Positions 13,630 to 52,570 of a DNA stretch of 64,000 bases are shown one piece after another. The notes under the pieces were generated by a model. That model searched no databases and was not told the DNA's origin. It saw nothing but the letters and a program-made list of their open reading frames with translations. Source of the DNA: Candidatus Bathyarchaeota archaeon RBG_16_48_13 (GTDB lineage Archaea > Thermoproteota > Bathyarchaeia > RBG-16-48-13); contig MEZH01000007.1 in assembly GCA_001775995.1 (NCBI GenBank), positions 188,807 to 252,806 of the forward strand. The letters run 5' to 3'. The position numbers were made by a program, and so were the translations under genes. Numbering within the stretch: the stretch's first letter is position 1; every line of letters begins with the position of its first letter.

Positions 13630-15117
13630 TTAGCCTTTTATCACAGCCAAGGGCACAAGTCTGGCAACCTTCGTCGCTATTCTGAGATCGTGGCTGACTT
13701 GGACTACTTCGTCGACATTCTTGTATGCTGGATCGGCTTCTTCGGCCAAGACAACTGATGAGGCTGCTCGTACAACCATCCCTCGACTCTCAAGCTCCTT
13801 CTTGACCTCATTCCCCCAGAAACTCTTCTTGGCCATGGTTCGGCTTAGCATTCGACCAGCTCCGTGAGCAGTGCTCCCCCAGGTAATATCCATGGCATGT
13901 GGTGCGCCGACCATGACCCAGGAGCTGGTTCCCATGGATCCAGGTATTATTACTGGCTGTCCGACAGATCGATATGCGGAGGGTATTGCTGGATGTTCTG
14001 GTGGAAAAGCTCGAGTAGCTCCTTTTCTATGAACGATGACCTTTTTGATGCTACCATCAACAGCGTGTTCCTCGATCTTTGCTATATTGTGCGCAACGTC
14101 ATAAACGACTTTTAAGCCCATTTTGTCTGCTTGGGCATGGAAAGCCTGTTCGAAGGATTGACGAACCCAATGAGTGATCGCTTGTCTATTGCTAAATGCA
14201 AAGTTGACCGCGCTGGCCATTGCCTTATAGTAATCTTCAGCCTCATTACTGCTAGCTGGAGCACAAGCCAATTCTCTATCTGGGAGTGAGATTTTATACT
14301 TGTCTATGGCGCGTTCCATAACTTGGAGATAGTCGCTGCAAATCTGGTGACCAAAACCTCGACTTCCCGTATGAATCATCACCGTAATCTGATCAGGTTC
14401 CATCAAACCGAAGGCTTTCGCAGTTTGGGTGTCGAAGATCTTGTCGATTTTTTGAATTTCAACAAAATGATTGCCACTGCCCAAGGTTCCGATTTGCGAT
14501 TCACCTCTATCTTTTGCGGTCTTGGAGACTTTCTCTGGATCTGCGTTCTTCATGAAGCCGTTCTCTTCACAGTAATTCGGATCTTCAGGCCAACCCAGAC
14601 CTCTTTTCTCAATTAACCAATTAACGCCTTCTAGAGCAATCTTGTCCAGCTCAGCTCCACTAACTCTGAAATCTTTTCGGCGACTTCCCAAGCCACTCGG
14701 TACGTTTTGAAAGATTGAGGTTGCCAAATCGGCAAGTTTTGGTCGTATGTCATTCAGGGTTAGGTTTGTGGAAAGAAGTCGGACACCGCAGTTTATACTA
14801 TTGGAGGGCTAGCTCACAATATTTATATCGTATCCGACTCCGCCCGGACTAATTACTCCCGATTCATAATCGGTAGCTGCTACTCCACCTATGGGGAAAC
14901 CGTAGCCTTCATGACCGTCCGGCAAAACAATACTGGATTTGTAGATACCCTTGAGGTGCGCCACATTCACTCCTTGCTCTATGGTCCTGTCGAGCTGCAT
15001 TTTTTTTAGAAGTTCTTCGTTGGCAAATATCGTGCAAGGCACTCTCATGCCCGATCTATACGAGGGTGGCAGACGCCAAGTGTTCTTATCGATTCGTTCT
15101 AGGGGAAAATGAGACAT
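13630..15117 (-). CDS. rtcB: tRNA-splicing ligase RtcB, reading frame interrupted by a 30-nt TAG-containing insert
   Basis: ORFs 14809..15117 and 13630..14727 are in the same frame and together cover a full RtcB ([22 protein letters not shown]|[29 protein letters not shown]). Removing 30 nt gives 485 aa. Confidence 0.9.
14792..14821 (-). other. Putative 30-nt BHB-like mRNA intron in rtcB (register ambiguous by up to 6 nt because of a UAUAAA direct repeat)
   Basis: The insert encodes IVS*PSNSIN between DIN and CGVRL. A 12-bp exon-exon helix (14830-14841 with 14775-14786), an internal hairpin, and a UAUA/UAUA central helix with an AAC bulge at the 3' junction support a splice-site structure. 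Confidence 0.5.
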
Positions 15118-15926: not shown

Positions 15927-16361
15927 TTATACATCCAGAATGAACCTTAAGGTCGTCTTCCCTTTTCTTTCGGAAATCGCCATTCTGTGATACGTTATGG
16001 CCTTGACGCCAACTCTCGACGGGTGCCGTTCTCCATCATAAGTTTCCCCATATATTGTGGCCTCCAGATGGAAGATTTTCCACCGCATTTCTATTTTTTC
16101 TACTTGAAATCTTGAGTACACGTTGTTGTCTATTTCGAATTTTAGGATTAATTGTTCCAGCCACTTATATAGGAGTTCATGTTTGTCTCTTGCCTCTACA
16201 ACTATTGTCTCTCGTTTCGTTGGCTTCACAGTGCTAGTATCAATCATGACCTCGAACAAAGCCAATGCAGCGTCTTCGAAAGATTTTCCGATGGTTGGGC
16301 CCCAAGCTTCCACATATACATCGGCTGTATGTTCAAGAAATCTAAATCCCACTTGAATCAA
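15927..16361 (-). CDS. Archease (RtcB activator)
   Basis: 144 aa with the N-terminal F.FLEHTADVYVEAWG signature of archease. Located near rtcB. Confidence 0.9.
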   Translation of the reverse strand: MIQVGFRFLEHTADVYVEAWGPTIGKSFEDAALALFEVMIDTSTVKPTKRETIVVEARDKHELLYKWLEQLILKFEIDNNVYSRFQVEKIEMRWKIFHLEATIYGETYDGERHPSRVGVKAITYHRMAISERKGKTTLRFILDV

Positions 16362-16470: not shown

Positions 16471-16635
16471 GCCGGGATGACGCGTAAACTAAAAGATTTT
16501 CGCGTCTCGACGGCTGAGTGGACTAACACGCCCAGACGATGCGTGGCCCAAAAGCGCCGGCCTTGAGCCGGTCATAAGCAAGAGAGCCGGTGGCCCTTCT
16601 GGGTCTCAAGGGTTCAAATCCCTTTCCCGGCGCCA
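16471..16635 (+). tRNA. tRNA-Ser(UGA) with three introns, CCA encoded
   Basis: Acceptor GCCGGGA/TCCCGGC, G73, T-arm AAGGG-TTCAAAT-CCCTT, and a long variable arm TGGCCCTTCTGGGTCTC. Introns are at 16479-16511 (33 nt, position 8/9), 16526-16551 (26 nt, D-loop) and 16568-16584 (17 nt, 37/38). Each has a 4-bp helix plus 3-nt bulges. The mature tRNA is 89 nt with anticodon loop CUUGAGA. Confidence 0.85.
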
Positions 16636-50588: not shown

Positions 50589-51409
50589 TGGTTGAAGTCA
50601 CCCTCATAACAAGGGTCTATGGCCCTTATTCAGAACGAGTTCTTCGTTACTTAACGATGGCTATGAAATCTCTCTCTTCAGACCTGAGACTGAAATCTGA
50701 AATTCTCAACGTATCGAAACGGGGATTTGTGCAGATATTAGTGAACGGTGAAGATGAAGAAATAGCACTAAACTACATCAGAGGCAAATTCGGGATAGCC
50801 CTTCAAGCATTGAGTGAGAAGTCAATTGGCGTGAATACGGTTGGCAGGATCGTTGATTCGGGCAAGGTAGGCTATGGCTTGTACTTGGATCTAGGCTTGA
50901 CATCCAGAGAGTATTCAGATGCATTGATTCCTCTCCGTACTTTGAGGGATCAACTCGTTGGCAGAGAGAACATGTCGATCCGCGGACTAATAAGGGCATA
51001 CGCTCTTTATGATGACCTCCCTCTATCGATCGAAATCTCAAAGATAGACTCAGAGAAGAGGGAGATAACAGCAAAGCTGACAGATAGACAGAGGCGAACG
51101 TACAGACGATGGTTGAAATCAGGCTTGGAAAGAGTCATCGTGACTGGAACTTTTCATGAGGAATTGAAAAAGGCGTTGGCAAGAACTGGCCATTCGAGGG
51201 ATATTGTTAGAATAGATTCTTTGGGTTTGTTAGAACATGTGATCGTCTGCAAGAGTGGAACTGAGGCACCAGGCCTGATCGCTGCACTGGGACCATGTTT
51301 TCCACGTGTACCTCTTCATGCCCTAGTTCCTTCCAAGATTGCGACAGACAAAAAGGTCTTGAACATGGTGGGCCGGGCCGGACTCGGACCGGCGACCTCT
51401 GCCTTGTAA
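50588..51409 (+). CDS. Conserved archaeal hypothetical protein (possibly DUF2110 family)
   Basis: 273-aa ORF with start-stop coupling to the HD gene. Family assignment is from memory only. The last 44 nt run antisense through tRNA-Val. Confidence 0.45.
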   Translation: MVEVTLITRVYGPYSERVLRYLTMAMKSLSSDLRLKSEILNVSKRGFVQILVNGEDEEIALNYIRGKFGIALQALSEKSIGVNTVGRIVDSGKVGYGLYLDLGLTSREYSDALIPLRTLRDQLVGRENMSIRGLIRAYALYDDLPLSIEISKIDSEKREITAKLTDRQRRTYRRWLKSGLERVIVTGTFHEELKKALARTGHSRDIVRIDSLGLLEHVIVCKSGTEAPGLIAALGPCFPRVPLHALVPSKIATDKKVLNMVGRAGLGPATSAL

Positions 51410-51461
51410 GGGCAGCTTCAGGCCCAACTCAGATATCCTGACCAGGCTAGACGACCGGCCC
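51366..51461 (-). tRNA. tRNA-Val(UAC) with one non-canonical intron, CCA encoded
   Basis: Acceptor GGGCCGG/CCGGCCC, A73, and anticodon arm CTGCC-CTTACAA-GGCAG. An 18-nt intron at 51417-51434 (position 25/26) has central helix CAGG/CCUG and bulges AUA and AAG. The T-loop reads UCCGAGU, which is atypical. Confidence 0.8.
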
Positions 51462-51568: not shown

Positions 51569-51707
51569 TGGCGCCGGGGGTGGGATTTGAACCCACGCGG
51601 GCTTCCGCAGACTGTTTCAACGGCCCACAGGCTTTCAACCCTAGGTGGCTAGCAGGCTTGGGCTAAGCTTGTTCAATCTGCCCCCTACCAGACTAGGGCA
51701 CCCCAGC
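51569..51707 (-). tRNA. tRNA-Ser(GCU) with three introns, CCA encoded
   Basis: Acceptor GCUGGGG/CCCCGGC, G73, and T-arm GUGGG-UUCAAAU-CCCAC. Introns are at 51658-51677 (20 nt, 29/30; GGGC/GCCC helix, bulges AGA and AAG), 51634-51649 (16 nt, 37/38) and 51603-51617 (15 nt, variable loop; CCGU/GCGG helix, bulges UGA and AAG). The mature tRNA is 88 nt with stem CAGGC/GCCUG and loop CUGCUAA. Confidence 0.75.
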
Positions 51708-52249: not shown

Positions 52250-52570
52250 AAGGTAGCGGTAGCTCCTGGGCGTTGAAACCCATCCCAAGGAAGTGCACAA
52301 TCCGCAAAATCCGTTCCATAGCCCTGAGAGCGCCATCCGTCCACTTTAGGGCTGCTCCATCCCTGGCCTGACCCGTTTCAGCAGTTAGGGGGAATCCTCC
52401 TTCCTACAAAGGAGTATCTCCTTCCAACGGCCCCTCAGGATAGAATTTCATCTTCACGGAGTTGGTTTCCTCCCTGTTCAGAATGATCCTCCGTCCAGGT
52501 TATCAGGCTCCCGCGTGTCGCTCATTTCGGGTTGCAGGGAAGAGCGAGCTCCCCAGCCATCCTACCGCCG
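52250..52570 (-). ncRNA. Signal recognition particle RNA (7S/SRP RNA)
   Basis: The minus strand contains the helix-8 core GGUCAGGCCA-GGGA-UGGAGCAGCC (compare the bacterial 4.5S GGUCAGGUCCGGAAGGAAGCAGCC). The 5' GGCGGUAG pairs with the 3' CUACCGCU. About 320 nt, with a TATA-like motif upstream. Ends are approximate to about 10 nt. Confidence 0.8.

Follow-up and report, generated by a model that had tools for sequence, protein, structure and literature searches.

How an archaeon could produce an active tRNA-splicing ligase from a gene that carries a stop codon just ahead of the catalytic cysteine is the question raised by the rtcB locus of Candidatus Bathyarchaeota archaeon RBG_16_48_13. The gene lies in a stretch of 64,000 nucleotides, hereafter the window (contig MEZH01000007.1 of assembly GCA_001775995.1, positions 188,807 to 252,806 of the forward strand), in which a preliminary description had noticed a 30-nt insert within rtcB and proposed it as an intron of the messenger RNA (mRNA) removed by an endonuclease. 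Our analysis supports this proposal by the conservation of the insert, the purifying selection acting on the exons, the restriction of substitutions to unpaired insert positions and the existence of 29- and 38-nt inserts that other lineages carry at this site and that shift the frame. The segment of 30 nt from 14793 to 14822 is very probably an archaeal intron of the bulge-helix-bulge (BHB) type in the rtcB pre-mRNA. From these sequence comparisons we infer that the insert is spliced, and the tRNA-splicing endonuclease EndA and RtcB itself are the presumed enzymes of its removal.

The rtcB gene was found to occupy a single frame on the minus strand, from 15117 to 13630, with a sole internal stop, the TAG at 14811-14809; the coordinates, the shared frame and the in-frame TAG first reported all agreed with the sequence. 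The insert, one codon short of the catalytic Cys, separates the Asn99 codon from the Cys100 codon and is bordered by a 6-bp direct repeat, TATAAA. Eight different 30-nt deletions, from 14791-14820 to 14798-14827, returned the DINC motif and a 485-aa RtcB. Seven of these give an identical RNA, so that the seven registers originally counted were right at the nucleotide level, and the eighth yields a synonymous AAU codon; the register 14792-14821, for instance, leads to the same mRNA as 14793-14822. The predicted spliced junction, GAUAUAAACUGC, lacks 30 nt of the genomic sequence and reads GAU AUA AAC UGC.

Membership in the RtcB family was defined by a full-length profile or structure match together with the metal/GMP ligands Cys98, His203, His234, His329 and His404 (Pyrococcus horikoshii numbering). 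The spliced protein matched Pfam PF01139 with 574 bits over profile positions 1-426 and, over residues 4-485 of its 485 aa, was aligned end to end with P. horikoshii RtcB (1uc2/4dwq) with an E value of 8.5e-183. In the same alignment the motifs DINCGVRL, GSGNH, HTGSRG, AHNI and HGAGR were all intact and Cys100 corresponded to the metal ligand Cys98 of the P. horikoshii enzyme.

Homologous loci were collected from 185,579 species-representative genomes and from JGI metagenomes, and the best 160 RtcB loci, at most 73% identical, were used for comparison; none of these 160 loci from other lineages carries an insert at the DIN/C site. Intron-bearing relatives were reached only through clusters of protein fragments that break at the insert, and then through their contigs. 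The protein collection contained a 10-member cluster of RtcB N-terminal fragments of about 102 aa with a common C-terminal ending and a 6-member cluster of C-terminal fragments. According to protein and gene map, the N-terminal fragment P0136 ends in DINIES followed by the stop, and its 237-kb contig shows the same neighbourhood of EF-1alpha, S10, archease and rtcB. The 30-nt insert occurs at the same place in 12 loci, the window and 11 further ones (L081, L162-L170 and L171), which belong to separate assemblies from ENA, JGI and Logan. The alignment of related rtcB loci had been put forward as a check against an assembly artefact, and the recurrence of the insert in 12 independent loci excludes it and shows the insert to be fixed and conserved. 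L081 is 99.5% identical to the window, and L171, the most distant locus with the 30-nt insert, shows 81.6% protein identity and saturated synonymous divergence.

An insert that interrupts a gene in this manner might simply have destroyed it. According to this explanation, a recent 30-bp insertion, arising by duplication or left as the footprint of a mobile element together with the TATAAA repeat, inactivated rtcB, and another copy of the ligase does the work. The in-frame stop one codon ahead of the catalytic Cys, the resemblance of the 6-bp repeat at the insert edges to a target-site duplication and the lack of the insert in the 160 best loci of other lineages are all consistent with a pseudogene. 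Paralogues exist in the class as well, the Bathyarchaeia metagenome-assembled genome JAVZLM01 having two full-length intron-free rtcB genes (L004 on scaffold 4 and L005 on scaffold 13), a finding relevant to a possible back-up ligase in the organism of the window, and true rtcB lesions do occur in metagenomes. Such a case is L177 (JGI 3300062543, about 268-1705; P0216), which was considered as an intron at a neighbouring site and rejected: a deletion of about 40 nt removes the segment beginning DINCGVRLL and shifts the frame, and the gene seems either truly damaged or misassembled.

The evolution of the exons argues against inactivation. The ratio of nonsynonymous (dN) to synonymous (dS) divergence was 0.06-0.12 in every diverged pair of the five full-length intron-bearing rtcB genes, among which dS reached 0.48; L163 and L165, nearly identical with 15 nt differences, gave 0.19 over the whole gene. 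When the exons were considered separately, exon 1 gave pairwise values of 0.02-0.28 (0.02-0.10 for pairs at dS of about 0.4, with a dN of 0 for L163-L165) and exon 2 values of 0.07-0.21, or 0.07-0.11 without the near-identical pair. Between the window and L171 dN was 0.11 and dS was saturated; even at this distance no additional frameshift or stop was detected in the five full-length genes or in L171. Despite the insert, purifying selection acts strongly on both rtcB exons. All of the lineages compared carry the insert and the ancestor already had it, so that all divergence arose with the stop in place, which argues against a pseudogene. The preliminary description had argued against this explanation on the ground that RtcB should be indispensable, without putting it to a test; such a test is provided by the dN/dS analysis, which supports its conclusion. 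Furthermore, no additional copy of the insert was found in the window, where only chance matches of up to 11 nt occur, giving no support to a repeated mobile element.

The insert and its flanks were then analyzed as RNA. The minimum free energy (MFE) fold of 14765-14851, at -26.2 kcal/mol, contains a 12-bp helix between the two exons, a short UAUA/UAUA central helix and a hairpin with a CUAGCC loop, the exon helix and the hairpin both being as first proposed. The exon helix, which clamps the insert, is formed by GGAGUCGGAUAC and GUGUCCGACUUC through 10 Watson-Crick and 2 GU pairs. Drawn one base earlier, the central helix becomes AUAU/GUAU, each strand then having a clean AAA bulge, and leads to the same mRNA as the UAUA/UAUA register. 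The originally drawn UAUA/UAUA helix is thus found in the MFE fold; it meets a C.A mismatch in one of the more distant loci discussed below (L176), where the AUAU/GUAU register keeps 4/4 pairs. Likewise, the 5' junction, which had been described as relaxed, has a clean 3-nt bulge in the AUAU/GUAU register, and it is the 3' side that is the loose one there. As modelled, the window motif belongs to the relaxed HBh' class and not to the strict hBHBh' class. Rfam returned no match at the insert locus, and its only matches in the window were the signal recognition particle (SRP) RNA and two tRNAs.

The substitutions within the insert follow this fold. Among the codons able to change synonymously, 33% are variable within the close clade and 58% differ between the window and L171, whereas only two sites of the 30-nt insert vary in the close clade and three in the comparison with L171. 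The variable sites are the loop base that switches the stop codon, which alternates between TAG and TAA among relatives, another base of the loop, the hairpin's bulged base and one base of the 3' bulge, all of them unpaired. The 20 paired intron bases show no change across the clade with the 30-nt insert; under drift at the synonymous rate, the chance of no change at these 20 bases relative to L171 is about 1e-7 by a rough binomial estimate. Judged from this pattern of substitution, the 30-nt insert is constrained as a structured RNA. Its rate of change is far below that of synonymous sites, and only unpaired positions are affected, which is a further point against a decaying gene. We consider the pseudogene explanation strongly disfavoured and its probability very small.

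The clamp also differs from what intron-free genes display, since its positions pair 12/12 in the window against 4-11 in the 160 intron-free homologues, a single locus reaching 11. It is invariant in the 12 intron-bearing loci except for a CGA to CGG change in L171, by which a U-A pair becomes U-G and the pairing is kept. A synonymous cold spot, with 1/19 codons variable, covers codons 91-109, and rtcB has two other cold spots.

Other lineages were found to carry different inserts at this very site. The loci L172-L175 carry a 38-nt insert, GGTGGTCGAGGGCTATCAGGCCTTTGCTGCCGTATAAA, at DIN/C, and L176 (Logan SRR12613057, 198-1570) carries a 29-nt insert, TGCCTGCAGCTCAGCTGAGGCAGTGTAAA, at the same point. 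Both lengths shift the frame, so that only removal of the insert restores RtcB. The RtcB of L176 is 76% identical to the Hadarchaeota loci L041 and L045, both intron-free. This Hadarchaeota-like affiliation extends the phenomenon beyond Bathyarchaeia and implies that the intron site crosses class or phylum boundaries. Each intron-bearing lineage has intron-free relatives that are closer to it than the other intron-bearing lineages, and the three intron types therefore imply either repeated gain or repeated loss.

The three intron types have a common layout, G-[AYAU]-(AAA)-hairpin-[GURU]-(AAA)-C, in which the hairpin consists of a 5-bp stem, one bulged base on the 5' strand and 3-8 further pairs. 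The basal stems are unrelated in sequence (UAUUG/CAAUA, GGUGG/CUGCC and UGCCU/AGGCA), with 5/5 pairs changed on both sides. When the intron types were aligned, 98.7% of the cells paired and 7/13 pairs changed on both sides, a result matched by 0/500 shuffles, while controls in which the partner was slid by 1-3 columns gave 36-56% pairing. The hairpin h' adjoins the 5' bulge in all three types and is also predicted by RNAalifold. In L176 the central helix is ACAU/GUGU, all four pairs being kept through a change of U-A to C-G, and the MFE fold is a near-textbook hBHBh' motif at -48.8 kcal/mol. The exon-side helix h is a 6-bp helix after a 4-nt bulge in L176 and consists of a distal clamp only in L172. 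In silico cutting after the second base of each bulge produced GAY AUA AAC UGY, encoding DINC, in the window, L163, L171, L172 and L176; the rule by which exon 2 had been predicted in the preliminary description thus gives the correct reading in every lineage examined.

Five further Bathyarchaeia RtcB N-terminal fragments, P0155, P0191, P0203, P0204 and P0212, encoded on contigs of 39-279 kb, end 20-50 residues past the Cys, and by their sequence these tails look like ordinary frameshifts.

Since the insert length is a multiple of three in the window clade, the stop could in principle be dealt with by the ribosome, either hopping from AUA to AUA in the manner of T4 gene 60 or reading through the stop, to give RtcB without or with ten additional residues. 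The identical AUA-AA on both sides of the insert and the stop-bearing hairpin after the take-off region are features expected for such recoding. Nevertheless, the codon that follows the landing AUA is CAC in L163 and L165, so that hopping would give DIHC and not DINC, at a position where Asn is kept in 158/160 intron-free loci (Thr in L061 and L079); the would-be landing codon of L176 is GUA and not AUA. By contrast, the 3' bulge of L163 and L165 is ACA, and only three cut registers yield DINC there, both BHB registers among them, the others giving DIHC. Read-through is excluded by the frame-shifting 38- and 29-nt inserts, the alternation of TAG and TAA argues against decoding of the pyrrolysine type, and ten extra residues within a metal-binding motif would probably be harmful. 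Translational recoding is accordingly given a very low probability.

The two parts of the gene might also be translated separately, as pieces of about 102 and 365 aa that assemble into an active ligase. Public gene calls do annotate two RtcB-domain open reading frames (ORFs) in every related contig; the guessed start of the second varies from one to another. No ATG, GTG or TTG codon lies between the stop and Cys100, and the first in-frame start is found 22 codons further in the window, at varying positions among relatives and nowhere within 50 codons in L171. The 27 codons before the first possible start are constrained, with a dN of 0.16 against a dS of 1.36 between the window and L171, and the catalytic Cys would be missing from both pieces. 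A split enzyme is hardly credible on these data.

Several observations weigh against the interpretation of the insert as a BHB intron and have to be set beside the comparative evidence. BHB-like motifs are common by chance, a loose scan returning about 5,280 candidates of central helix plus hairpin in the window, and the MFE fold of 14765-14851 is only modestly beyond chance (z = -2.67; 2/200 shuffles as stable). A window-wide BHB scan combined with ORF merging recovered the rtcB intron together with about 140 other ORF-merging matches at gene boundaries and is too unspecific for calling further mRNA introns. The structure alone is therefore weak evidence, and the weight rests on the comparative data. 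The central helix of the window is composed of A-U and G-U pairs only, with ensemble probabilities of about 0.35 for UAUA/UAUA and about 0.01 for AUAU/GUAU, the latter register being 2.5 kcal/mol less stable by explicit energy evaluation in the nearest-neighbour model; RNAalifold predicts the hairpin and the clamp, and not this helix. Its covariation is thin, consisting of the single U-A to C-G change, and an alternative exon-exon pairing could also fit. Helix h at the 3' bulge is not canonical, since a single G-C pair is followed by four unpaired bases and then by the 12-bp clamp. The clamp itself, real in the window, is specific to the window clade and no general feature of these introns, 8/12 pairs being formed in L172 and 6/12 in L176 by hand count. 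Finally, a search of the database proteins with a junction-spanning peptide found no spliced close relative and no unsplit protein more than 78% identical, which means that every known member of the window clade is split.

The weakness of the central helix and the irregularity of helix h would also suit an intron removed at the RNA level by other machinery than EndA and RtcB, such as an endonuclease recognising the hairpin or a different ligase, and the best-supported element is indeed a hairpin with a conserved layout of 5-bp stem and 1-nt bulge. On the other hand, in each of the three intron types the splice sites stand to the hairpin as the BHB rule requires, BHB splicing is clearly employed by this organism at non-canonical positions of tRNAs, and relaxed BHB motifs are usual in cbf5 mRNA introns, which are cut by heteromeric EndA (PMC2738675). 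We regard removal by other machinery as improbable.

If the insert is a BHB intron, its removal may be pictured as follows. In the transcript, AUAU of exon 1 would pair with GUAU at the 3' end of the intron to form the 4-bp central helix, beside which an AAA bulge would be exposed on each strand, with the intron hairpin on one side and the exon-exon clamp, of 12 bp in the window clade, on the other. EndA would cut after the second base of both bulges, and RtcB, aided by the neighbouring archease, would ligate the exons to GAU AUA AAC UGC. Ligation would restore the metal-binding Cys100 within the DINC motif of the 485-aa ligase. Translation of unspliced mRNA would end at the UAG or UAA of the intron and produce only an inactive fragment of 102 aa. 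The positions of these elements are collected in Table 1 with those of other features of the window.

Table 1. Positions in the window of the rtcB exons, the putative intron with its predicted structural elements, and neighbouring or additional genes.
Feature	Position	Strand	Details	Basis
rtcB exon 1	14823..15117	minus	ATG at 15117; 3' end GAU AUA A	ORF translation, Pfam RtcB, P. horikoshii RtcB alignment
Putative 30-nt BHB-type intron	14793..14822	minus	predicted cuts after A14823 and A14793	
rtcB exon 2	13630..14792	minus	5' end AC UGC = Asn99 codon positions 2-3 and Cys100; includes stop codon	
Predicted central helix H, 5' strand AUAU, in exon 1	14825..14828	minus	pairs with GUAU 14798-14795	
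Predicted 5' bulge AAA	14822..14824	minus	predicted cut after second base, A14823	structure model
Predicted intron hairpin h', UAUUG-(U)-GAG / CUC-CAAUA	14799..14821	minus	loop CUAGCC contains TAG 14811-14809	MFE fold
Predicted central helix H, 3' strand GUAU, intron 3' end	14795..14798	minus		structure model
Predicted 3' bulge AAA	14792..14794	minus	predicted cut after second base, A14793	
Clamp helix, exon-1 strand GGAGUCGGAUAC	14830..14841	minus	codons G-V-G-Y; pairs 12/12 in window	
Clamp helix, exon-2 strand GUGUCCGACUUC	14775..14786	minus	pairs with 14841-14830	
Archease, known RtcB activator	15927..16361	minus	upstream of rtcB	Pfam PF01951, E = 5e-42
tRNA-Ser(UGA)	16471..16635	plus	three introns	ARAGORN after removal of all three segments
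Archaeal SRP RNA	52256-52568	minus		Rfam RF01857, 141.9 bits

Archease and a tRNA with three introns had been placed near rtcB, and both were found where stated; the synteny of archease and rtcB is kept in related loci. The tRNA-Ser(UGA) gene lies 1.35 kb from rtcB and was not detected by Rfam or by default ARAGORN with its introns in place. Intron 1 (16479-16511, 33 nt) is located near position 8/9, intron 2 (16526-16551, 26 nt) in the D-loop, with an A.C mismatch in its central helix, and intron 3 (16568-16584, 17 nt) at the canonical position 37/38. With two of the three introns in non-canonical positions, this gene indicates that the organism routinely splices non-canonical relaxed BHB introns. 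The cut rule had originally been calibrated on seven tRNA introns of the window; our check covered only the three of tRNA-Ser, which was recognised by ARAGORN once they were removed. Two tRNA-Val genes are found on the minus strand at 51366-51443 and 51569-51707; among them, tRNA-Val(GAC) bears a 58-nt insert in the anticodon region, and the ARAGORN model of tRNA-Val(UAC) has a poor acceptor stem and may contain a non-canonical intron.

The closest known counterparts of the rtcB insert are the introns in the cbf5 pre-mRNA of Crenarchaeota, which are 16-44 bp long, have a relaxed BHB motif and interrupt the codon of a catalytic residue (PMC2738675; Watanabe 2002, Yokobori 2009); the heteromeric crenarchaeal EndA cuts them between bulge bases 2 and 3 (PMC2738675). 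As of 2020, cbf5 was the only reported mRNA with a BHB intron besides a 5' untranslated region (UTR) case in Haloferax (PMC7714728). The rtcB introns are similarly short (29-38 nt), lie in the coding region at or adjoining a catalytic-residue codon, have a relaxed BHB motif and are predicted to be cut between the same two bulge bases. In both genes some members keep the frame and others shift it, the distribution is patchy and the host gene functions in RNA processing. Unlike cbf5, rtcB encodes the RNA ligase itself, whose product would be needed for the maturation of its own mRNA, and its hosts are Bathyarchaeia and a Hadarchaeota-like lineage; splicing was demonstrated experimentally for cbf5, while for rtcB it is deduced from sequence.

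Among tRNAs, Marck and Grosjean reportedly described in 2003 the non-canonical and multiple introns of Thermoproteota, with hBHBh' and relaxed HBh' motifs. The rtcB insert has the same predicted motif and cut rule and a similar length, and the same genome contains such tRNA introns; it differs in its mRNA substrate and in having, where helix h would be, a distal clamp between the exons that consists of codons, and it resembles no other element of the window in sequence. The mRNA of Haloferax volcanii HVO_1309 carries in its 5' UTR a BHB intron processed by EndA (PMC7714728). It shares with rtcB the occurrence of a BHB motif in an mRNA, EndA being the probable enzyme for rtcB also; there, however, the intron lies in the UTR of a euryarchaeal host and leaves the ORF uninterrupted, whereas the rtcB intron interrupts the reading frame.

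In eukaryotes, HAC1 and XBP1 mRNA splicing proceeds through cleavage by IRE1 and, in metazoa, ligation by RtcB. The likeness to the rtcB intron consists in the protein-only cut-and-ligate removal of a short mRNA intron, with a change of frame or product and RtcB as the ligase. HAC1/XBP1 splicing is, in contrast, a stress-regulated switch with another endonuclease and motif, and its target is not the mRNA of the ligase.

A further parallel was observed within RtcB, inteins being present at the same DxN/C junction in the archaeal fragments P0228, P0169 and P0252 (tails CLPPGTRVL, CISGSSLI and CLTGDAKV). They share with the intron the insertion point and the appearance of a parasitic element at the gene's most conserved site; unlike the intron, they are removed at the protein level, comprise hundreds of residues and are in frame. 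Full-text literature searches returned no prior report of an rtcB intron, in agreement with the statement of the preliminary description that none was known, and RtcB, introns and Bathyarchaeia appeared together only in a paper on rRNA circularisation. The putative rtcB intron would thus join the mRNA introns of the cbf5 type, with two peculiarities: the host gene encodes the ligase that must finish the reaction, and the site is shared with inteins.

Endonuclease-type introns in archaeal protein-coding genes are extremely rare, cbf5 being the sole coding-region case in the retrieved literature, together with one in a 5' UTR (PMC7714728, PMC2738675). A second host gene outside the classical Crenarchaeota would give the tRNA-splicing machinery a broader role on mRNAs than has been assumed. 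The locus also indicates that split genes in metagenome-assembled genomes are not automatically pseudogenes, automated annotation misreading rtcB consistently, and its conserved 90-nt element offers a ready substrate for studying the specificity of EndA on mRNA. The presence of introns and inteins at the same catalytic-site codon bears on the persistence of selfish elements at conserved sites.

With the ligase that completes the reaction as host, the gene would provide a natural system in which to study how an enzyme depends on its own activity. The intron would make the synthesis of RtcB depend on existing RtcB and EndA, a self-referential circuit that could sense spare ligation capacity and that several archaeal lineages would have retained, or acquired again, at an identical codon. 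This regulatory meaning is speculative, and we hold it to be rather unlikely; the alternative is a selfish element that is well tolerated at an indispensable site. If such a circuit does exist, mRNA splicing by the tRNA machinery would add a level of gene regulation in archaea and would be a prokaryotic equivalent of XBP1/HAC1 splicing.

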